IMG/VR virus record: IMGVR_UViG_3300030000_000409
Span: 1-10,283 of that record
Strand: one strand, 5' to 3'
DNA: 10,283 nt
Source of the DNA: a virus
Lineage: Duplodnaviria; Heunggongvirae; Uroviricota; Caudoviricetes
Shown here: piece by piece, positions 1,133 to 10,283 of the stretch
Layout of the letters: every line of letters starts with the position of its first letter
Position numbering within the stretch: the stretch's first letter is position 1
Notes under the pieces: generated by a model
What the model saw: the letters and a program-made list of their open reading frames with translations, nothing else
The model's database searches: none
What the model was told of the DNA's origin: nothing
Program-made: the position numbers and the translations under genes

Positions 1133-1560
1133 CACATAAAGCAACATTTTTCGTTTTCACTGATACATCATCACAACTTTCCACAAAAGGCATTGATCAA
1201 TTTGTTTCTGATTTAAAAAGTCTACATCACAATGTTAACGTTGAAGTGATAGATTTTCTATCTGCATGGAATCTTGGTGTTCTTTTTGAGTGCTTAGATA
1301 GATTTACAAATATTACATGTGCTTATCTGGGGTGTGTAAAATTCGCAAATAATGAAAAGTCATCATATTTACCACCAGATGAAATAGAAATCAAATTAGT
1401 AAAATACTTCAAGAGCAGGAATATTCCTACTATTCGTATAGAAAAAGATACATTAAGTGATTATTCCATTATTGAGATGCCTCAAGAATACATTCAACAT
1501 AGAATCATACATCTTAGAGAATCATCAATTACAACATTCATCACCACGTTCTTAGGCTAA
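1129..1560 (+). CDS. Hypothetical soluble protein, 143 aa
   Basis: The ATG overlaps the SSS stop (ATGA at 1129-1132), which implies translational coupling. No family motif was recognised. Confidence 0.7.
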   Translation: MTHKATFFVFTDTSSQLSTKGIDQFVSDLKSLHHNVNVEVIDFLSAWNLGVLFECLDRFTNITCAYLGCVKFANNEKSSYLPPDEIEIKLVKYFKSRNIPTIRIEKDTLSDYSIIEMPQEYIQHRIIHLRESSITTFITTFLG

Positions 1561-2606
1561 TCTGCTGAATACAATTTTGTGTCATTATCCCAGTAAATCT
1601 GTTGAATCCCATAATGTCTATTTCTTACAACATTATAAAGAGAACCAACTTTTACTTTTACTGCAAGATATTCACTCCATGATGGGTGAATTTTCTGTAT
1701 AAATGATCTCAAAGCAAACTTATAGGAATTTGCAGCAGGTGTTTCATTGAATCTTTTAAATGATTTTAGCATACTGATTTGTTGAAATCTTTCTGTGTTA
1801 AAAAATGTTTCAAAAGCACTAAGCTGTTTATGAGAAATATTATTTCCTGATTCGAATACATTCGTAAAGCAAAGTGTTCTTAATGAAACACTCTGCCATT
1901 TACATGTGAAATTTATCCACCATAAAAGGTCACTCATTTTTGTGAGTTTGAATGGGGCTTTGGTGATAAGTGAATTTAGTGAATCCATAAAATTAATTGA
2001 AGGATTCAATCCCAATGTAGATAAATACGATGAAATATTTTCATCAGAAATTAATCCATTTAGTAGCATCGGCATGATAGTTGGAAGTTGGAATATTTTG
2101 TCTGATCCAAATAACTGATCTGCATTCTCGCCCATTAGATAAATCGTGTCATTGAAATTCAAACCATTAAGACATTCATGTACATTTACCGTCTTATATT
2201 TTAGAACAATATCCCACCAACATGAAAGATTTTCATACATTGCATCTACTGATGTTGCTAAAGTTATCTGTTCTCTATCGAATCCTTCAGTCATTATGAG
2301 ATGGTTAAAAGCAACTAACAATCCGGTACTATCTAATCCTCCACTATAGAAAAGCGTAAGAGGTTTACCAGTTTGAAGCAATGACCTAGCACGACGAATC
2401 ATTTCATCAAAGAACATTTTGTCTGAGTCTCCATCATCTATCTGTGTTGGTATCTCCCAAACAATATGAGTGTTAAATGGCAATGTAAAACTATTAGTTC
2501 GATCCATAGCACTTGCATTTTTACCAACTAAATTCAGAAATGCTTTAGCTTCTGACATATGTTCATCATTTAGAACTCTAGGCATATAGTAAATTACTTT
2601 TTTCAT
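1557..2606 (-). CDS. Asparagine-synthetase-like PP-loop ATPase (AANH superfamily) without a glutaminase domain, about 349 aa
   Basis: PP-loop LFYSGGLDS (SGGLDS at 2328-2345), AsnB-like GENADQLFG (2106-2132; compare GEGADELFG) and C-terminal K..LR. The start is re-placed at ATG 2606 (MKKVIYY), which forms an ATGA overlap with the upstream stop. The track's 2651 start would overlap the upstream gene by 49 nt. Confidence 0.8.
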   Translation of the reverse strand: MKKVIYYMPRVLNDEHMSEAKAFLNLVGKNASAMDRTNSFTLPFNTHIVWEIPTQIDDGDSDKMFFDEMIRRARSLLQTGKPLTLFYSGGLDSTGLLVAFNHLIMTEGFDREQITLATSVDAMYENLSCWWDIVLKYKTVNVHECLNGLNFNDTIYLMGENADQLFGSDKIFQLPTIMPMLLNGLISDENISSYLSTLGLNPSINFMDSLNSLITKAPFKLTKMSDLLWWINFTCKWQSVSLRTLCFTNVFESGNNISHKQLSAFETFFNTERFQQISMLKSFKRFNETPAANSYKFALRSFIQKIHPSWSEYLAVKVKVGSLYNVVRNRHYGIQQIYWDNDTKLYSAD

Positions 2607-3214
2607 ATTAGACCAATTCCACCTGATATTACATTGACACTCTTTTTCCATTTCTCATAATCATCTTCATTGTCAACAGATAATAAGGATTTACAATGAA
2701 GCCATATGGCCATCTTACGGTGTTTATAAATGTTAAGGATGCTTTCCTTTTCAATTTTGAGTTGGTGAATAGCATCAGTTAAAATTAGCCCTACTGCTTC
2801 ACATAATTGAGGTGCCAAATCTTCAATATTAGGAAACATTTTTAAGTCATCTAATGTAAGAAAATATCCATTTGATGCAATGCCCAAAGTTCTACGAGTG
2901 ATATTAAAATTCACATACTCATATCCTCTACTTAGAAATTTTGCCTTGTTTCTTCTAATGTTATTATTTGACGTATTTGCATTTTCAGTTTTTACAAATT
3001 CCTCATTTATCCAACAAAATCTACCATTTAGAATTTGATTATCATTATCAACTTCATTTAAGGACATGAGTGCTTGGTTCCATTTATTAGTTGATACAGA
3101 AACTAAACGAGTATCTAATATGTTACTGTGTAGAAATTGTCCTATATCAGAATTTTTGGGTAGAGCAATTATCGCTCTACTGCCGGCATCATGCAGTATA
3201 AATTTCACATCCAT
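2603..3214 (-). CDS. Hypothetical protein, 203 aa
   Basis: Coupled on both sides: TAATG overlap at 3212-3216 and ATGA overlap at 2603-2606. No recognisable motif. Confidence 0.75.
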   Translation of the reverse strand: MDVKFILHDAGSRAIIALPKNSDIGQFLHSNILDTRLVSVSTNKWNQALMSLNEVDNDNQILNGRFCWINEEFVKTENANTSNNNIRRNKAKFLSRGYEYVNFNITRRTLGIASNGYFLTLDDLKMFPNIEDLAPQLCEAVGLILTDAIHQLKIEKESILNIYKHRKMAIWLHCKSLLSVDNEDDYEKWKKSVNVISGGIGLI

Positions 3215-4095
3215 TAAAGAACCTCTTTGGGCACCACTGATAATAACACATCAAATTTTGCTGAATATTTTGTTGATAAATGTTTTCTAATATCAGCGTT
3301 GAATTGTTTTCCGACCACTGTATCCCAATTGGTAGTTTTTTCTGTGAATATAAGTTCTTGACCCCACTCAGCCTCTATCATTTTTTGATTGCTGAAATAT
3401 GGATATGCTTTGGTTAGTAACGGACTATCCCATACCGTTTTTATGAGTTCAATACTAGATGAGTGGAAATAGTAATCACCATCTAAACCTGATTTTTTTG
3501 AATGAAGAAGATATGCTATTTCTGTACTTGAGATAGGAATTCCAAAGCCCGTGTCTGTACTAGATAGAACAGAATATGATTGTCCATCCTTATTTATATC
3601 GCCTTCTCCTATGATGATATGTCTATCAGCAGGAATTTTATCAAACATAAATGGGACAACAAGATATGTTGGTTTAAGTATTCTCGTTAGTTCAAATGAT
3701 GTTTCAGCAAAAGCAACCACATCATCTTTATTGAGCGTGATAATGTTAACTGGTGTAGAAAGAGCGGCTGATACTTTATTGACATTTTCTATCATATAGT
3801 CATTGATGCCAGGAATGTTCAAAAAGTACATTTCAAAATCAATGTTTAGTTTTTTACATTGGATTGCTATAATTTCACTATCTTTACCAGAAATGAATAC
3901 TGCTAGTTTATTTTTTCCAGAAGACACCAATGCATTCAACCTATTATTGATAGCAGTTTTGTAACTATCTGCGGGCGTAGAACCTGCAACACCAGTATAT
4001 GAAAATTTAAATACTGGCTTAGGTGATAAATCAGTGTATCCGGCTTCATCAACACCATTTATTGACCAAGAGATGTGTGGTAATTTGTTAAACAT
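3214..4095 (-). CDS. Divergent AANH/PP-loop-like protein, 293 aa
   Basis: A beta-strand is followed by SGKDSEII (SGKDS at 3877-3891), a one-residue-short version of SGGxDS. A later IIIGEGD resembles the AsnB GEG motif. There is a good RBS (AAAGGA) upstream. Confidence 0.65.
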   Translation of the reverse strand: MFNKLPHISWSINGVDEAGYTDLSPKPVFKFSYTGVAGSTPADSYKTAINNRLNALVSSGKNKLAVFISGKDSEIIAIQCKKLNIDFEMYFLNIPGINDYMIENVNKVSAALSTPVNIITLNKDDVVAFAETSFELTRILKPTYLVVPFMFDKIPADRHIIIGEGDINKDGQSYSVLSSTDTGFGIPISSTEIAYLLHSKKSGLDGDYYFHSSSIELIKTVWDSPLLTKAYPYFSNQKMIEAEWGQELIFTEKTTNWDTVVGKQFNADIRKHLSTKYSAKFDVLLSVVPKEVL

Positions 4096-4098
4096 TTT

Positions 4099-4109
4099 TC
4101 TTTCCTTTA
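4099..4109 (-). promoter_or_regulatory. Ribosome-binding site TAAAGGAAAGA for the 293-aa PP-loop gene
   Basis: The AGGA core lies 7 nt before ATG 4095. Confidence 0.65.
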
Positions 4110-4120
4110 CTTACAATAAG

Positions 4121-4567
4121 TTAGATAAACTTCATGACTCGTATATTCTCTTTAGAGAACCCTGTTGTTTCAATCTCCCCAAATGTGGTGAACCCATATC
4201 TAAGATAGACGTTTAATGCAGGAATTTTTGGATAGCTCCATAGAATTTTTGAACCATTCCATATTGCTTTAGCTTCTATCCCAGCAAATAATATTTGTGA
4301 TATGCCTTGTTTTCTATATTCCGGGTAAACAAAAATACCTCTCACCCTAAAATCTGTATCAGAAGATATGTGACCAGATATGACACCGAGAACGGTATCA
4401 TCGTCATGATACTTTAAAAAATATGGTACTGCTTTTTTGATGATTTTGTCATGACCACCATTGCGACACATTGAGTTAACAGGTTCAACATCTTCTCTAC
4501 CTGGCCAAAGTTCATTCTGCCATATTGGTTTTATTTCTTCCCATGTACAATTTGATAATTTAAACAT
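4121..4567 (-). CDS. GNAT-family N-acetyltransferase, 148 aa
   Basis: Acetyl-CoA binding motif A (RGIFVYPEYRKQGISQILF) and C-terminal ALNVYLRYGF. The start is re-placed at ATG 4567, preceded by GAGGT at 4572-4576. The track's 4720 start would overlap the divergent gene. Confidence 0.88.
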   Translation of the reverse strand: MFKLSNCTWEEIKPIWQNELWPGREDVEPVNSMCRNGGHDKIIKKAVPYFLKYHDDDTVLGVISGHISSDTDFRVRGIFVYPEYRKQGISQILFAGIEAKAIWNGSKILWSYPKIPALNVYLRYGFTTFGEIETTGFSKENIRVMKFI

Positions 4568-4676
4568 CTTGACCTCTAAACGTATTTTGTATTTATTAAT
4601 GTTTCCGTTAAACGTGATCTGATCTAGATGAAGGTAAATAAGATTACACAATTTTCCATACAATTTATAATAGCAA
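4568..4676. promoter_or_regulatory. Divergent promoter region between the minus-strand and plus-strand operons
   Basis: This is the only intergenic gap over 25 nt in the window. On +, TATAAT at 4666-4671 with ATTACA (4/6 match to TTGACA) at 4643-4648 and a 17-nt spacer, 5 nt before ATG 4677 (leaderless-like). TAAATA cores on - (4590-4595) and + (4635-4640). AT-rich DNA makes chance matches likely. Confidence 0.4.
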
Positions 4677-5528
4677 ATGATAAACGTTTTATGCACCAGT
4701 AAGCCCGTAGATGGGCTCATGTACTACAGTTATGAGTACACATCTTATTTGAATTCTATCGGTATATCTGCCCAAATGGTGATAATCCGTCATAGAAATT
4801 TCAATCATGAGGCATATCTTAATGCCATATCTCACAAGTATATTCATTGTAAAAATGTAGTGTTTGAATATGCTTCAATTAATGATGAAGATGTTACGCT
4901 GATCATGGGTCGCAGTATGATGACGCTATCTTGGTTTAATTTCAAAGACTATAATCATCGAGAACAGAAAATATTAAAACGATTATTTTCAAATAAGGTC
5001 ATTGCTGTTTATTCTGAAAATCATCCAATAGATTATGTCAATGCATTGAATTTTTATGCACCATCTAAAATCGTTGATGTGTGTGACTATGAGGTTTATC
5101 CACGCGGAACGGGTGAACATTTTGAAAAGAGAATAAATTTCGAAATTTACAAACCATTCGAAGACAAGATTCAATTCAAATATTTGTTCATGGGAACAAA
5201 TGATAAATATTATGCAACTGCTGAAAAAGTAATTAAATGTTTTCCTGATCATGGAATATTGACATATGATGAAAAATATATCAATCCATCTAACAATAAT
5301 GTTTTTGTGCCAATACAAAATCTTTTAGGTATTTTTGACACATACATTTACACAAAAGAAACATTTGATCCAGCCCCAAGACTCATACAAGAATGTAAAT
5401 ATTATGGGAAACCAATTTTATATCTTAGAGATAAATGTATCACGGATGGTGGAAGTGTTTACAATAAACGCCCCATCAAATCTTTAGACGTAACAGCCAT
5501 TATCAATTCAATTATTAAACTTGTATAA
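4677..5528 (+). CDS. Divergent GT-B-fold glycosyltransferase-like protein, 283 aa
   Basis: The C-terminal FDTYIYTKETFDPAPRLIQECKYYGKPIL (5337-5417 from the first D) aligns by eye to the GT4 signature D.fv.ps..EgfglvllEAma.GkPvi, giving DX7E. FMGTNDK resembles the F.GR...K donor-binding loop. Confidence 0.55.
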   Translation: MINVLCTSKPVDGLMYYSYEYTSYLNSIGISAQMVIIRHRNFNHEAYLNAISHKYIHCKNVVFEYASINDEDVTLIMGRSMMTLSWFNFKDYNHREQKILKRLFSNKVIAVYSENHPIDYVNALNFYAPSKIVDVCDYEVYPRGTGEHFEKRINFEIYKPFEDKIQFKYLFMGTNDKYYATAEKVIKCFPDHGILTYDEKYINPSNNNVFVPIQNLLGIFDTYIYTKETFDPAPRLIQECKYYGKPILYLRDKCITDGGSVYNKRPIKSLDVTAIINSIIKLV

Positions 5529-5530
5529 CT

Positions 5531-6319
5531 ATGAAAATAAAAGATATCGAATTATTCCCAGATGAGGTAATGACATTAATTGACTCACAGGAATTTATAG
5601 GAATTCGTTTAAGTGGTGGAAGTGATTCAGCATTACTATGTCATATAGTATTGAAATATTTCCCTCATATAGAATTGCTACCAATCATAATGTTTAACAG
5701 ATTGAGACCAGCAGCAGAACAATCAGTTAAAAACGTATTAAATGCGCTCAATGCACTTAACCCCAATAATAAACTGATGACTCCAGAAATAGGATATTTT
5801 GATACTACTGGATGGCCAAGTTATATAGATGGAGTCAAACAGAAAAATCCAAAAATGATTTTTCAGCCTGAATTTATTAGAAGTGTGTTTGCCAAATATG
5901 ACACTAAATTAAACTTTATTTTGTCTGGTGAGACATTGAATCCACCTATCGAAGATCAAATTGTGTTAGGCGTTGAACAAAGATTTGTTAAAAATAGAAA
6001 TTTAAAGCGTATTAATTTATGTCATGAGTATGATGTTAATGGTGTTACTAAATGGGAGTATAGTCCATTTAGAAATTCTAATAAAAGAGAAGTAGCAGAG
6101 ATTTATAAAGAATTAAACTTAATGGAGAGTTTGTTCCCATTAACAGAAACTTGTGAAACTGAACCTCATGTTTATGAAATTTTTGGTGTTGATAATAATA
6201 TAACCTACACAGCTCCAGGAATTGAACCATGTCAATGCTGCTGGCCTTGCAGAGAGAAATATTGGGCATATGGGGTTTTTGATTTCAATACTAAAAATAG
6301 AACAACACGACTAAAATGA
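5531..6319 (+). CDS. QueC-like PP-loop ATPase with C-terminal Cys4 zinc site (probably not a true QueC)
   Basis: IRLSGGSDSA (SGGSDS at 5612-5629), SPF...NKREV, and TETC (Cys at 6152) followed by CQCCWPCREK (6230-6250, CxxCxxC). The canonical QueC motifs YGQRH, VPxRN and YPDC are not seen. Confidence 0.75.
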   Translation: MKIKDIELFPDEVMTLIDSQEFIGIRLSGGSDSALLCHIVLKYFPHIELLPIIMFNRLRPAAEQSVKNVLNALNALNPNNKLMTPEIGYFDTTGWPSYIDGVKQKNPKMIFQPEFIRSVFAKYDTKLNFILSGETLNPPIEDQIVLGVEQRFVKNRNLKRINLCHEYDVNGVTKWEYSPFRNSNKREVAEIYKELNLMESLFPLTETCETEPHVYEIFGVDNNITYTAPGIEPCQCCWPCREKYWAYGVFDFNTKNRTTRLK

Positions 6320-6600
6320 AACTCATACCAAAATGTCTAAACTTTGATTCACCTGACAGGAAACCAGCAGCATATACATCTGATGGATTTATGTTACCTT
6401 GTTGTTGGGTAGATACCCCATATGAAGATGAATCATTAAAAGCTCTTGGGATGAGAGATGAAGAGTTGAAGGTTGCTAATAATGAGAGTTTGATACAAAT
6501 TTTTACATCTGATCAATGGGAAAGATTTTTTAATGTATTAGTACATGATTCTGATTCGGCACCTTTCGCGTGTAAGTATAAATGTGGGGTAAAAGAATAA
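6316..6600 (+). CDS. Stand-alone SPASM/Twitch-type iron-sulfur binding domain, 94 aa
   Basis: Pattern C7 ... DGFMLPCC (C29, C30) ... N.ESLIQIFTS..W ... C86KYKC90, typical of radical SAM auxiliary-cluster domains. ATGA overlap with the upstream gene. Confidence 0.75.
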   Translation: MKLIPKCLNFDSPDRKPAAYTSDGFMLPCCWVDTPYEDESLKALGMRDEELKVANNESLIQIFTSDQWERFFNVLVHDSDSAPFACKYKCGVKE

Positions 6601-6605
6601 TTGAT

Positions 6606-7337
6606 ATGACTAGAATTACAGACGAATACGTAAAGCGACAGCAATTTTTAAATCCAAATCTTGATATTTCACATAGGTGTATCATCAGATGCCCGTTATG
6701 TATCAGACAGAAAATGATAAGTCAAAACAAAATTAAACGATCTTTTGATATTGAGGAAAAAGATTTCCGTAAAATTTTAGATTTTTATGTTAAAGATATT
6801 GCTTTCTGTGGACAAATTTCTGATCCAATTTATCACCCAAATTTTCTATCATTTTTAAAAATCTGCAATGATACCAATAGACAAGTCAGAATTTCCACCA
6901 ATGGAACTGGTAAAGATTTAAAGTGGTGGGAAGAAGCTTTTAGTTATGGTAAAAGTAACAATGAATGGTGGTTTGGAGTAGATGGCATAGATAATAAAAG
7001 TGAACTGTATCGTGTCGGATCTAATTTTGAAAATGTGTGGGAGATGATGAAGCTTGGGAAAAAATTAGGCAATGTCATTGTTTGGCAATTCATCATTTTT
7101 AAATATAATGAACATGAGATAGATGAAGCTATAGAAATTGCTAAGCGTGAAGGATTTGCATTAAAATTTGTAAAATCTGATAGGGTTTTTAAGCTAAATA
7201 AATATGAACTTAGAAAGGGTGTAAAAGTAGATTTATTACAGCCATCTACTGAACATTTATCTGATAGGATAAAAACTGAATATTGGGGTAATAAAACTCC
7301 TGAATTGGATTCTTGGGATAAAAAACGTAAAATTTAA
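6606..7337 (+). CDS. Radical SAM enzyme (core domain only, no C-terminal SPASM cysteines), about 243 aa
   Basis: CIIRCPLC (6678-6701), FCGQISDP in the GGEP position, STNG and FGVDG motifs. There is no Cys in the C-terminal half. The start is re-placed at ATG 6606, 5 nt after the upstream stop. Confidence 0.88.
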   Translation: MTRITDEYVKRQQFLNPNLDISHRCIIRCPLCIRQKMISQNKIKRSFDIEEKDFRKILDFYVKDIAFCGQISDPIYHPNFLSFLKICNDTNRQVRISTNGTGKDLKWWEEAFSYGKSNNEWWFGVDGIDNKSELYRVGSNFENVWEMMKLGKKLGNVIVWQFIIFKYNEHEIDEAIEIAKREGFALKFVKSDRVFKLNKYELRKGVKVDLLQPSTEHLSDRIKTEYWGNKTPELDSWDKKRKI

Positions 7338-7345
7338 AGGAAAGA
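7335..7345 (+). promoter_or_regulatory. Ribosome-binding site TAAAGGAAAGA for the DegT aminotransferase
   Basis: The AGGA core lies 6 nt before ATG 7348. The 11-mer is identical to the site at 4099-4109. Confidence 0.7.
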
Positions 7346-7347
7346 CA

Positions 7348-8421
7348 ATGATTGCATATGAAGGATGGGATAAGGATTATCAAGAAAATAGACAGGCATA
7401 TTTAGATGCATTTGATAAATTTATGAATCAGTGTAATTATCAAAACACTGAGGCATTTGATAAAGATTTTGCTGAAATGATGGGACGTAAGTATGCTGTG
7501 TCAGTTGCCAGCGCAACAGATGCTTTGTATTTCTCTCTTCTTAGTTATGGAATTGGTGAAGGTGATGAAGTATTGGTGACAGATTTCTCTTGGATTTCTA
7601 CTGCATCATGTATCTCAATGGCTAAAGCCACACCAGTATTCTGTGATATTGATTTAGATTCTTATCATGTGAGTTTGGATAGTATCAAGAGAATGTATAG
7701 TGAGAAAACAAAAGCAATAATCTATACACACTTATTTGGTAGTATGTCAGATATGACTGCTATTAAGGATTTCTGTAAAGAGAAAAATATCGTTCTTATT
7801 GAAGATGCTGCACAAAGTTTAGGTTCAAGTCTGAATGGTGTTAAGGCTGGAACTATTGGTGATTGCAGTTCATTCAGTTTCAACACGAATAAAGTTGTTG
7901 CCGGTATTAATGGTGGTGGTGTATTTTTAACTGATGATCGTGCGCAAGCAGATTTAATCCGCAAAATTAGACAACACGGTAAAGGAAATGGATTTGAACT
8001 ACTGGGATATAATTCCAGATTGTATTCACTTAATGCTGAGATCATCAAAATAAGATTACAACAAAGAGAAAAATATCAAACTAAAAGACAACAGGTAGCT
8101 GATACATACAACGCAGCTTTTGAGAATCTAAATGTATTTGTTCAGCGGTCAGAGCCAGGGCTGGTTCACAACTATCATAAATACACTGTTAGATTTGAAA
8201 ATAAAGAGACTAGAGACCGTGTAAAGAATGTATCTGGTGCGTCAGTACATTATGATTGCCCTCTATCTTCAAATCTCATGTATGATAAATTGCAACATCG
8301 AAAAGATAATTGCGTTAATTCAAAACATGTAACTGACACAATACTTTCATTACCTATTCACCCTTGGCTTACTGATGATGAAGTTAATTTCATTATTGCC
8401 AATATCAAAAGTTCATTCTAA
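7348..8421 (+). CDS. DegT/DnrJ/EryC1/StrS-family PLP-dependent sugar aminotransferase, 357 aa
   Basis: VASATDAL, EDAAQSLG (PLP-binding Asp153), SFSFNTNK (Schiff-base Lys182 at 7891), GYNSRL and LSLPIHP. RBS AAAGGA at 7336-7341. Confidence 0.93.
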   Translation: MIAYEGWDKDYQENRQAYLDAFDKFMNQCNYQNTEAFDKDFAEMMGRKYAVSVASATDALYFSLLSYGIGEGDEVLVTDFSWISTASCISMAKATPVFCDIDLDSYHVSLDSIKRMYSEKTKAIIYTHLFGSMSDMTAIKDFCKEKNIVLIEDAAQSLGSSLNGVKAGTIGDCSSFSFNTNKVVAGINGGGVFLTDDRAQADLIRKIRQHGKGNGFELLGYNSRLYSLNAEIIKIRLQQREKYQTKRQQVADTYNAAFENLNVFVQRSEPGLVHNYHKYTVRFENKETRDRVKNVSGASVHYDCPLSSNLMYDKLQHRKDNCVNSKHVTDTILSLPIHPWLTDDEVNFIIANIKSSF

Positions 8422-8423
8422 AA

Positions 8424-9236
8424 ATGCCTATAAAAAATATCCATGAGTACAATGCATTAAACTATCGCACTGTTGATTTTTATCTAACCAAGTCATGTAA
8501 TAAGTCTTGTCACTATTGTACAGCATGGACAATAGAAATGAGAAACTTAACAGTTGATATGGACTTCCTTAGAAGGGTTGTTAAATACCTAAGTCCATAT
8601 AAAACGAGAATTTGTTTATTGGGTGGAGAACCAGGTCTTGTTAAAAATCTCGATGAGGTTATTGCTGAAATTAGAAAGTACCCAAATCTTGTAGTCCAAG
8701 TCATGTCTAATTCTTTGATTAGAAAATTCTATCCTCACGTCCTTGAGGATCCAGAAATACTTTATATTGAACATCTAGTCTTAGATTTTCAAGAAGACAA
8801 GATTGAGAAGCTTGGAAATTATGATTTCTTCGAATTGAATGATTTCAATAACTACAATCTTATTATCAAAACTCCAAATTATTTCAAACATAAAGAGAAT
8901 TTTGATATATCTTATTTAGATCACAAAAACACGATTCTAAAAGAATACAATTCTAGATCACCAACTTATGATGTAAAAGATTTAACATCAGAAGCAGATA
9001 GAAGAATGTGTGCTAAATTTCCATTAGTACCCGTATTCGATTTTGAACTTCAAAAGCTTAGACATTGCAGTAGGAAAGTCATCAATGGTTCTAGACAGTT
9101 TGACATCACTGAAGAAAATGTTAACAAAATGATGAATTATGAACTCTTCGAGTTCGAAGATTATTGTAGAGTTTGTACTGAAACAATTCCACCAGTTGCT
9201 GCTGAAAGAATTATCAAATTTATGAAGCAAATGTAA
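8424..9236 (+). CDS. Radical SAM enzyme with fused Twitch-like auxiliary cluster domain, 270 aa
   Basis: CNKSCHYC (8496-8519) and LLGGEP. Four C-terminal Cys codons at 9009, 9066, 9165 and 9174 give C-x18-C-x32-C-x2-C. Confidence 0.88.
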   Translation: MPIKNIHEYNALNYRTVDFYLTKSCNKSCHYCTAWTIEMRNLTVDMDFLRRVVKYLSPYKTRICLLGGEPGLVKNLDEVIAEIRKYPNLVVQVMSNSLIRKFYPHVLEDPEILYIEHLVLDFQEDKIEKLGNYDFFELNDFNNYNLIIKTPNYFKHKENFDISYLDHKNTILKEYNSRSPTYDVKDLTSEADRRMCAKFPLVPVFDFELQKLRHCSRKVINGSRQFDITEENVNKMMNYELFEFEDYCRVCTETIPPVAAERIIKFMKQM

Positions 9237-9240
9237 TCAC

Positions 9241-10283
9241 ATGAAAATTTTTTCGATAGCTCTTAACATGCATGACCACAATACTTATGATGGGGTTGTG
9301 CATCGTCAAGAGGAAAGGTACTCACGTAAGAAACACAATCTTGTGCATTCTGATCCACATGATCCATCACTTGCTAGAAAATTCTTTAGTGAACACTTCA
9401 TTCCTAATTTTGTCAATAGGAGTAAAGATACTATTTTTTCTTTTACAGGTTCAAATTTGGGAATAGAATTTGTAGAAGATTTAATTGAGTCAACATTAGT
9501 AGACAAAAAATTTTTAAACTTCAAACCAAATAATCTCTGGGACTATTATCAAACTGATGAGTTCTATTATATTGATCACCATCAAAGCCATGCAGCTTAT
9601 GCATTCTTAAGCTCCGGGTTTAATGAGTCGGATATTTTAGCAATAGATGGTAAAGGCTGGAACTTTTCATGTATCTTCATTGATAAAAATGGAAATATTA
9701 CAGATTTATCTTCTCAATTATCCATAGGAAGTATATGGAACAAAATATCCCAAGAGTTAGGTTTGGGATATTTAGGTGCCGGGAAGACTATGGGATTAGC
9801 AGCATTCGGTAAATACAATAAAACTATTCATGACATTATACTGGAACACATATCATCACTAGATTATCAACAGTTAACAGATTCACTAAATGAAGTGAGT
9901 GATATACCAAAAGAAGATGTGGCATTTACACTACAGTATGTAACTAATGAGTTGGTTAAAAAAATAGTTTATCCTCTAAAAACATCGGATAATATTTGTG
10001 TATGTGGGGGTGTTGCATATAATGGTTACATGAATGAAGAGTTAACAACACGATGGACTAATGTACACGTACCTCCTGCCGTTGGAGATGAGGGGCACGC
10101 AATGGGAACATATATGCATGCAGATTACATGCTAAATAAACATGTTCATATTCCAAGTGTTTATTCAGGTGTTGAACATTCCATCGACACTAATATATTT
10201 CGTTACTTAAAATACCAACAAAAATCATTTGATGAAATTTGTGTTTACGTTGCACACGCTATTGCTAATGGTAAAATTGTAGG
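9241..10283 (+). CDS. O-carbamoyltransferase (NodU/CmcH/TobZ family), 3'-truncated by the window edge; not in the ORF track
   Basis: Open from ATG 9241 to the end: MKIFSIALNMHDH...EERYSRKKH, IDHHQSHAAYAF (9577-9591 for HHQSH), AIDGKG, GAGKTMGLAAFG, CGGVAYNGYMN, VPPAVGDEG. It ends at AIANGKIV(G), where the YrdC-like domain normally begins. Confidence 0.95.
   Translation, partial: MKIFSIALNMHDHNTYDGVVHRQEERYSRKKHNLVHSDPHDPSLARKFFSEHFIPNFVNRSKDTIFSFTGSNLGIEFVEDLIESTLVDKKFLNFKPNNLWDYYQTDEFYYIDHHQSHAAYAFLSSGFNESDILAIDGKGWNFSCIFIDKNGNITDLSSQLSIGSIWNKISQELGLGYLGAGKTMGLAAFGKYNKTIHDIILEHISSLDYQQLTDSLNEVSDIPKEDVAFTLQYVTNELVKKIVYPLKTSDNICVCGGVAYNGYMNEELTTRWTNVHVPPAVGDEGHAMGTYMHADYMLNKHVHIPSVYSGVEHSIDTNIFRYLKYQQKSFDEICVYVAHAIANGKIV

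Follow-up and report, generated by a model that had tools for sequence, protein, structure and literature searches.

The 10,283-nt stretch analyzed here (hereafter the window) is the first 10.3 kb of one 81.6-kb viral contig, IMG/VR record IMGVR_UViG_3300030000_000409 (Caudoviricetes; 35% G+C). Positions 4677-10283 are occupied by seven co-oriented plus-strand open reading frames (ORFs), in which glycosyltransferase, aminotransferase, and carbamoyltransferase genes stand among genes for radical SAM proteins; we refer to this operon as the cassette. The contig has T4-like contents, with T4-type topoisomerase II subunits, a 1191-aa tail fiber, a Ro60 homologue, and a canonical ThyA. CheckV places its completeness at 23%, so the phage genome is probably far larger than the contig. 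Whole-window megablast against 50,697 phage records gave no match, that is, no cultured phage is alike at the DNA level. The T4 late-promoter box TATAAATA has 1 match versus 2.07 expected and carries no information. The genes of the operon, with the basis for each assignment, are:

4677-5528, +: compact GT-B (GT4-like) glycosyltransferase, 283 aa (AlphaFold2 model, fold searches)
5531-6319, +: QueC-like PP-loop (AANH) ATPase, 262 aa (motifs, Atlas neighbors)
6316-6600, +: free-standing Twitch/SPASM-like cysteine domain, 94 aa (cysteine pattern, fused relatives, predicted complex)
6582-7337 (likely start 6606), +: radical SAM core, 251 aa (PF04055)
7348-8421, +: DegT/DnrJ/EryC1/StrS-family aminotransferase dependent on pyridoxal phosphate (PLP), 357 aa (PF01041)
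8424-9236, +: Twitch-type radical SAM enzyme, 270 aa (PF04055, invariant cysteines, fold matches)
9241-10761 (cut by the window at 10283), +: NodU/CmcH/TobZ O-carbamoyltransferase, 506 aa (PF02543, PF16861)
10742-11380 (beyond the window), +: methyltransferase-like gene, 212 aa (class-I methyltransferase-like motif)

Orthologues of the 251-aa protein begin at residue 9 of the annotated ORF, so by sequence comparison the true start of this gene is probably at 6606. With this start the intergenic gaps are +2, -4, +5, +10, +2, and +4 nt, and the ORF map confirms the arrangement of seven co-oriented genes with gaps of -4 to +10 nt that a first-pass annotation, made from the sequence alone, had described. 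The carbamoyltransferase is truncated by the window edge, not by the contig end, and the operon continues into an eighth gene that overlaps its 3' end. The 212-aa product has a G-x-G/acidic-loop motif of the class-I methyltransferase type, and its orthologue in the cultured Pelagibacter phage Mosig (see below) is annotated as a methyltransferase.

All motifs named in the first-pass annotation can be seen in the sequence: SGGSDS, two copies of CxxxCxxC, SFNTNK with the DegT lysine, and the carbamoyltransferase HHQSH. Its seven enzyme assignments also survive, with strength that varies among families. Pfam supports the DegT protein, the carbamoyltransferase, and both radical SAM cores. The QueC-like call comes from motifs and Atlas neighbors, and that of a SPASM/Twitch ORF from a cysteine pattern, fused N_Twi_rSAM relatives, and a predicted complex. 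For the 270-aa enzyme, the Twitch call draws on seven invariant cysteines and on BtrN and BlsE as top fold matches. Three features had been missed: the methyltransferase-like continuation of the operon, its split form of an enzyme that is fused elsewhere, and its location in a hypervariable tail-fiber island.

No Pfam, NCBIfam (E 0.01), or PHROG match was found for the 283-aa protein. An AlphaFold2 model built from a 25-sequence alignment (predicted local distance difference test, pLDDT, 94.2; predicted template modeling score 0.91) has the two Rossmann-like domains of the GT-B fold. Top Foldseek matches are PimA (6.4e-6), BshA (4.7e-5), and T4 AGT (1.2e-4). Foldseek probability is 1.00 to PimA, BshA, WbnH, and T4 AGT and BGT, with E values of 6e-6 to 5e-4 and template modeling (TM) scores of about 0.5; among Swiss-Prot models PimA reaches 3.3e-6. 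Atlas neighbors are GT4 clusters, with structure rows at TM 0.60-0.69. The residues D231-x7-E239, invariant in 25 homologues, presumably occupy the place of the GT4 E-x7-E motif. The model and the fold searches uphold the earlier GT-B call, which had been offered as open to refutation by structure.

The 357-aa protein matches PF01041 at 1.2e-82 (278.5 bits versus a cutoff of 19.8). Its closest solved relatives are 7b0d (2.6e-63), QdtB (2.9e-54), and WbpE (1.2e-45); a literature search on PDB entry 7b0d, the top match, found nothing. The protein keeps the PLP lysine, not the dehydratase histidine, and the nearest solved enzymes are aminotransferases. The full 506-aa carbamoyltransferase matches PF02543 (8.1e-21, 75 bits) and PF16861 (1.7e-64, 217 bits), and an orthologue with 65% identity finds GdmN (2e-54), TobZ (1.1e-52), and NovN (3.5e-51). 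Its metal-binding histidine motif is kept as HHQSH, and it belongs to the NodU/CmcH/TobZ family.

The 270-aa protein has a PF04055 core (35.3 bits) and seven cysteines, C25, C29, C32, C196, C215, C248, and C251, that are invariant among 23 homologues (74% mean identity). Its AlphaFold2 model has a pLDDT of 74. Foldseek places BtrN first (3.8e-4), and VIA-align places BlsE first (Z 10.9), with BtrN at Z 9.5. The fold matches span residues 12-266, including the C-terminal domain, as expected of a Twitch-type enzyme. Distant homologues (profile E 2e-26 and 8e-47) still adjoin a DegT gene. This conserved adjacency speaks, as genomic context, for a dehydrogenase that may act on a sugar or cyclitol hydroxyl. 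The family is large: ocean metagenomes contain more than 1000 of its clusters at 90% identity, with contigs reaching 330 kb, but among 1.84 billion representatives just 14 clusters at 50% identity have E values below 1e-30.

The PP-loop, Twitch, and radical SAM genes

Between the glycosyltransferase and the aminotransferase lie the genes for the 262-, 94-, and 251-aa proteins. The 262-aa protein has an SGGSDS PP-loop at residues 28-33 and a C-terminal pattern, C208...C233-x2-C236-x2-C239, of which the CxxCxxC is kept in paralogues. Its sole family match is weak (TilS_N, E 0.003). No QueC match was found at E 0.01, the thresholds of PF06508 and TIGR00364 remaining out of reach, and feature and structure neighbors in the Atlas are viral clusters with PF06508 QueC. 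Because no QueC threshold was reached and no gene of the tRNA-guanine transglycosylase (TGT) family is present in three records (this contig, Mosig, and a 262-kb carrier), the sequence points to a QueC-like protein, not QueC itself. Searches of the PP-loop proteins against PDB chains by sequence gave nothing usable. The only close homologues of this gene (52-54%) are found in three related loci, L005-L007.

In the 94-aa ORF, C7, G24, C29, C30, and C86 are invariant among 20 homologues and C90 nearly so; the spacing C-x16-G-x4-C fits the first half of a Twitch/SPASM motif. The 251-aa protein has only a radical SAM core (PF04055, 34.6 bits), with C25, C29, C32, and C68 invariant and no additional cysteine domain; phrog_21308, a profile of 735 positions, matches it at 3.8e-24 across positions 417-602. 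Its match to N_Twi_rSAM (NF033640) is weak, at 28 bits versus a cutoff of 170, which leaves it outside that family as defined, and the profile of its own family matched GDGT-MAS only (E 4e-4).

The 94-aa protein and the radical SAM core are predicted to form a complex, with an ipSAE of 0.87 versus 0.01 for the best control; this mark is reached by 58 of 80 solved complexes and by 2 of 110 mismatched pairs. Three runs shared at least 99% of contacts, with partner pLDDT of at least 91. The models thus support docking of the 94-aa protein on the radical SAM core.

Related loci carry these parts in fused form. Their variable part encodes 412-503-aa proteins, of which a tested 474-aa example is a true N_Twi_rSAM (294 bits versus 170). 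In related proteins of 744-778 aa a QueC-like PP-loop stands ahead of the N_Twi_rSAM architecture (287 bits versus 170 in the tested example), and in a 458-aa protein the PP-loop is fused directly to a core like that of the 251-aa protein. Judged by domain architecture, the window order of PP-loop, Twitch ORF, and radical SAM core therefore represents, in separate genes, an enzyme that occurs as one fused chain elsewhere. Six loci instead have the 94-aa domain at the C terminus of the glycosyltransferase in one fused protein (404-406 aa), a tie between the glycosyltransferase and the radical enzyme.

Conservation and genomic setting

A search with the glycosyltransferase gene found 44 IMG/VR loci. 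The recurrent order, in about 44 IMG/VR contigs and in Mosig, is glycosyltransferase, Twitch ORF, radical SAM core, DegT, a variable insert, 270-aa-type radical SAM enzyme, carbamoyltransferase, and methyltransferase. Genes were counted on the 26 distinct IMG/VR loci in which the sequence downstream of the glycosyltransferase spans 9 kb or more. DegT is present in 25 of the 26, the 251-aa type in 24, the 94-aa type and the carbamoyltransferase in 23 each, and the 270-aa type in 22; DegT, the 270-aa type, and the carbamoyltransferase occur together in 22/26. Order and strand are constant, and the genes are grouped beyond chance. The wide co-occurrence in these loci and in Mosig removes one ground on which the first-pass annotation had said its pathway could fail.

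The insert between DegT and the 270-aa-type gene contains nitroreductase-like genes, PP-loops, and N_Twi_rSAMs. Most relatives have one to four tandem nitroreductase-fold paralogues there (e.g., L012 13568-17311, L022, and L026), which are absent from the window. A variant cassette in L005-L007 (IMG/VR 3300007516_000094 and relatives) consists of glycosyltransferase, Twitch ORF, radical SAM, QueC-like PP-loop, carbamoyltransferase, and methyltransferase. DegT and the 270-aa-type enzyme have been lost together from these three loci, which, like their adjacency in distant homologues, links the two genes.

The sole cultured carrier is Pelagibacter phage Mosig EXVC030M (MT647606), a SAR11 phage. 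Its genes Mosig_00083 to Mosig_00090 comprise a glycosyltransferase, radical SAM, small cysteine ORF, DegT, radical SAM, carbamoyltransferase, and methyltransferase, the same set and order as in the cassette at 50-56% identity, between tail-fiber genes and VrlC. They bear automatic names only, such as "molybdenum cofactor biosynthesis enzyme." Compared with Mosig, the window has an extra in-operon QueC-like PP-loop and a divergent GNAT/PP-loop operon, and lacks nitroreductase-like genes. Pelagimyophages have a hypervariable "host recognition cluster" with tail fibers, glycosyltransferases, and radical SAM cassettes (PMC7029224). The cassette is located in this hypervariable tail-fiber island of large marine T4-like, pelagimyophage-like phages, and fiber genes with S74 or Mtd_N domains lie near it. 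A literature search on jumbo-phage carbamoyltransferase/radical SAM clusters found no paper that describes or characterizes the cassette.

Across 185,579 species genomes the cassette turned up in one place, a 7.6-kb contig (27% G+C) from the bin of a Pelagibacter metagenome-assembled genome (MAG). This contig (PAFP01000047.1, MAG Candidatus Pelagibacter sp. MED817; locus L141) carries the glycosyltransferase, DegT, 270-aa-type radical SAM enzyme, carbamoyltransferase, and methyltransferase, with identities of 47-56%, and most likely represents phage DNA binned with the host. No polytopic flippase- or polymerase-like protein of the Wzx/Wzy type was identified in any cassette locus. Proteins with three or more predicted membrane helices in these loci are limited to TctA, one singleton ORF (in L033), a desaturase-like family, and the symporter of the window; the rest of the 81.6-kb contig adds three small ORFs of this kind. 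Because multi-helix proteins are so few and none is Wzx/Wzy-like, a classical O-antigen route is unlikely. An ordinary bacterial O-antigen or capsule cluster, the setting that the first-pass annotation had said would undo its proposal, is not what surrounds these genes, which are confined to phages apart from the one Pelagibacter-MAG contig.

Neighbors of the cassette in relatives include an SGNH-motif family, a DxD family with weak Glyphos_transf/GT2 matches, TauD, AspH, and a B12-radical SAM methylase. These families fit glycan tailoring. The DxD family, searched by sequence against PDB chains, gave nothing usable. In L017, L024, L028, L029, and relatives an upstream block encodes a TctA-family transporter, an AMP-binding ligase (acyl-CoA-synthetase-like), a further radical SAM protein, and unannotated families. 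The TctA transporter and the ligase could serve uptake and activation of an organic acid.

The remainder of the window contains the following genes:

2-1132, +: sodium:solute symporter-family (SSF) gene, 5' end cut by the contig end (PF00474 2.4e-17, TIGR00813 2.4e-22)
downstream of the SSF gene, both within 2-1560, +: orphan, 143 aa
1557-2651, -: PP-loop protein, 364 aa (SGGLDS motif)
2603-3214, -: orphan, 203 aa
3214-4095, -: PP-loop-like protein, 293 aa (SGKDS motif; weak TtuA-type match)
4121-4567 or 4121-4720, -: GNAT (Pfam matches to 8.2e-8)

The four minus-strand genes form a divergent operon (1557-4720), possibly a lineage-specific accessory module for amide formation. We rejected it as a conserved part of the cassette, as none of the four matched cassette loci; relatives of the 364-aa PP-loop gene are just 25-28% identical and lie in five unrelated viral contigs. 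In its longest form the GNAT ORF shares 44 nt with the beginning of the glycosyltransferase gene. An internal methionine (start 4567) leaves a 109-nt divergent intergenic region, 4568-4676, likely the promoter region for both operons. The SSF gene has more than 100 homologues on IMG/VR viral contigs (41-49% identity). It was rejected as a pathway member: 0 of 80 fetched homologue loci carry any cassette gene. No other gene of the window was present in those loci either.

The other end of the contig (78263-81596) encodes members of families f34, f28, and again f28, and then a DxD-family gene (hhalign probability 99.9, E 7.5e-38) that is open-ended. The same f34, f28, and DxD families lie directly upstream of the cassette in L012 and L021. 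The two contig ends may flank one island within which the assembly broke. We looked for a sequence overlap between the two ends and found none.

A candidate amino-sugar pathway and its alternatives

We consider the chances about even that the operon is a phage-borne, soluble pathway for tailoring and transfer of an amino sugar, in which the Twitch radical SAM enzyme and DegT act as an oxidation-amination pair. In this pathway the compact GT-B enzyme would move a sugar from a host nucleotide sugar onto an acceptor. By means of a 5'-deoxyadenosyl radical, the 270-aa enzyme would oxidize a hydroxyl of the sugar to a ketone or would dehydrate the sugar to a keto sugar. It could thereby stand in, by a route independent of nicotinamide adenine dinucleotide (NAD), for the NAD-dependent dehydrogenase or dehydratase missing from the locus; family profile searches found no match to a short-chain dehydrogenase/reductase-type dehydratase or dehydrogenase in any window ORF. 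DegT would then convert the ketone to an amine, the TobZ/NodU-type enzyme would O-carbamoylate a hydroxyl, and the downstream methyltransferase-like protein would methylate. One three-part enzyme may be formed by the second radical SAM core, the free Twitch domain, and the QueC-like PP-loop ATPase; it would probably use ATP to activate a carboxylate or amide and link this activation to a radical step.

The core of what the first-pass annotation proposed, namely that an amino sugar is made, then carbamoylated and attached, remains the best reading of the enzyme families and synteny; its substrate, product, and acceptor are conjectural. Several observations weigh against it. The window has no enzyme that makes a nucleotide sugar, so the donor must come from the host. 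For the 270-aa enzyme the model is of no more than moderate quality (pLDDT 74), and the Z scores of the sugar enzymes tie with those of SuiB (10.2), PqqE (9.8), and anSME (9.6). Peptide maturation, too, typically involves radical SAM/SPASM arrays, PP-loops, and nitroreductase-like genes, and the TctA transporter and AMP-binding ligase of relatives suit a small-molecule pathway too. The host-recognition island also gathers unrelated auxiliary genes (PMC7029224), and proximity to fiber genes is for this reason weak evidence for the acceptor.

The acceptor is probably a virion or envelope macromolecule. A virion protein such as a fiber is a possible choice that we put forward tentatively, and a host envelope glycan or lipid seems quite unlikely.

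In one alternative the cassette makes a free small molecule, similar to an aminoglycoside, aminocyclitol, or hexopyranosyl nucleoside, with which the phage would act against competitors or manipulate the host while infecting it. The enzymes would act as in butirosin, blasticidin, or gougerotin-type pathways. The top fold matches of the 270-aa enzyme are BtrN, a 2-deoxy-scyllo-inosamine dehydrogenase, and BlsE, which acts on cytosylglucuronic acid (PMC3715490), and the solved matches of the carbamoyltransferase (GdmN, TobZ, and NovN) are natural-product enzymes. In relatives a KedN5-type B12-radical SAM methylase adjoins the cassette along with the transporter and ligase, and the lack of a Wzx/Wzy-like protein in any locus also speaks for this alternative. 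We regard it as unlikely. Profile searches of the window ORFs identified no scaffold-forming enzyme, neither a 2-deoxy-scyllo-inosose synthase (dehydroquinate synthase-like) nor a nucleotide hydrolase, and the ORFs do not qualify as members of a 2-deoxystreptamine aminoglycoside pathway. No exporter or self-resistance gene was found, and the window SSF gene is not linked to the cassette elsewhere. Rapid turnover of accessory genes between close relatives resembles diversification of a surface glycan instead.

[quoted passage not shown] SPASM/Twitch enzymes are mostly peptide maturases, and SuiB, PqqE, anSME, SkfB, and EpeE score near BtrN and BlsE. Lasso cyclases belong among the AANH enzymes and azoline dehydrogenases among those with a nitroreductase fold. 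Protein hydroxylases of the AspH type often occur as neighbors. Against this stand the gap-free layout of the operon, which leaves no room for a precursor-peptide ORF, and the 94-aa ORF, a conserved partner domain and not a precursor. In evolution the 270-aa enzyme is tied most tightly to a sugar aminotransferase, and in six loci the glycosyltransferase is fused to the Twitch domain.

Least probable of all, and by our estimate very improbable, is hypermodification of phage DNA, with the GT-B enzyme glycosylating 5-hydroxymethylcytosine (5hmC) before amination and carbamoylation of the sugar or base, in the manner of T4 AGT and BGT and of a phage 5hmC carbamoyltransferase. The contig does encode a close homologue of T4 gp42 dCMP hydroxymethylase (27135-27878; E 6.7e-75 to 1b49, RSND kept), fold searches with the glycosyltransferase also find T4 AGT and BGT, and a phage carbamoyltransferase of the same family carbamoylates 5hmC (PMC8670742). 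However, a separate operon at 31034-37519, 17-27 kb away from the cassette, encodes a T4 beta-glucosyltransferase-like protein, a CofD-HAD fusion, an NTP-transferase, and guanylate-kinase-like and MazG/PRA-PH proteins. Given gp42 and this operon, the phage probably has glycosylated hydroxymethylcytosine DNA via a pathway other than the cassette. The gp42-like gene occurs only in this contig and is absent from 47 cassette contigs and complete Mosig. No thymidylate-synthase-family gene is present in complete Mosig, the 262-kb and a 118-kb carrier, or the 47 cassette contigs, so that, this contig apart, the cassette was not found together with an enzyme making 5hmC or 5-hydroxymethyluracil. No C5-methylase was found in the five largest records (a companion TET/JBP search was uninformative, its control going undetected), nor TGT/DpdA in the three records named above. 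In the MetaGPA study, carbamoyltransferases flanked by GT1 lay on unmodified contigs (PMC8670742), and PimA and BshA match the glycosyltransferase better than AGT and BGT. The phage's own beta-glucosyltransferase operon, the lack of thymidylate-synthase-family, C5-methylase, and TGT genes in the records searched, and the MetaGPA result together make DNA unlikely as the general target. The DNA option raised in the first-pass annotation is thus weakened by the inspection of flanking genomes that the annotation had itself suggested.

Returning to amino-sugar transfer, we can sketch a fuller scenario, which we offer as speculation more likely to be wrong than right. Large marine T4-like phages, including SAR11 phages, would place a carbamoylated, methylated amino sugar, built by radical SAM enzymes in place of NAD-dependent ones, on their own tail fibers. 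Rapidly shuffled accessory enzymes (PP-loop/N-terminal-Twitch/radical SAM fusions and nitroreductase-like and SGNH proteins) would diversify this coat for host range or anti-defense, and the three-part enzyme would perform an undescribed type of reaction.

Should the amino-sugar reading be right, it would be the first route to an amino sugar in a virus that is based on radical SAM enzymes, and it would point to glycans on the apparatus by which phages of the ocean's most abundant bacteria recognize their hosts. The cassette is in any case a common, wholly uncharacterized piece of marine phage biology, as more than 1000 clusters of the 270-aa-type enzyme, contigs of up to 330 kb, and a cultured SAR11 phage attest. 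Its PP-loop/N-terminal-Twitch/radical SAM enzyme, split or fused, belongs with NF033640, a family that itself has no known function or reaction. The question is directly testable, as Mosig and its host can be cultivated.

Comparison with known systems

NF033640 N_Twi_rSAM proteins have an N-terminal Twitch followed by a radical SAM core in one chain. The window copies this order, but the Twitch part and the radical SAM core are separate genes. The 506-aa carbamoyltransferase shares Kae1-like and YrdC-like domains and the HHxxH motif with TobZ, NodU, NovN, and GdmN, and is shorter than these enzymes (about 570-700).

Cytoplasmic machineries encoded by chloroviruses (capsid glycans) and Mimivirus (fibril glycans, with a viral PLP aminotransferase), like the virion glycosylation of mycobacteriophages, use soluble sugar-tailoring enzymes and glycosyltransferases to decorate the virus's own particle. 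We know of no T4-like marine phage shown to have such glycosylation. These systems serve as an analogy for a virion acceptor. Their machineries use NAD-dependent dehydratases, whereas the cassette has radical SAM enzymes, and the sequence relation between them is limited to shared superfamilies.

Chemical parallels exist in bacterial antibiotic clusters, whereas the cassette is carried by phages. Sequence similarity of the 270-aa enzyme to BtrN and BlsE is restricted to the radical SAM core (E 3e-3), and, unlike the butirosin and blasticidin pathways, the cassette has no recognized homologue of 2-deoxy-scyllo-inosose synthase or cytosylglucuronate synthase. The spacing of the four C-terminal cysteines of the 270-aa enzyme (19, 33, 3) resembles that of BtrN (17-18, 45, 3). 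Both pathways pair a Twitch radical SAM enzyme with a DegT-family aminotransferase, BtrN with BtrS/BtrR in butirosin and BlsE with BlsH in blasticidin S. In each pair, the radical SAM enzyme makes a keto intermediate on a sugar or cyclitol and the DegT-family enzyme aminates it.

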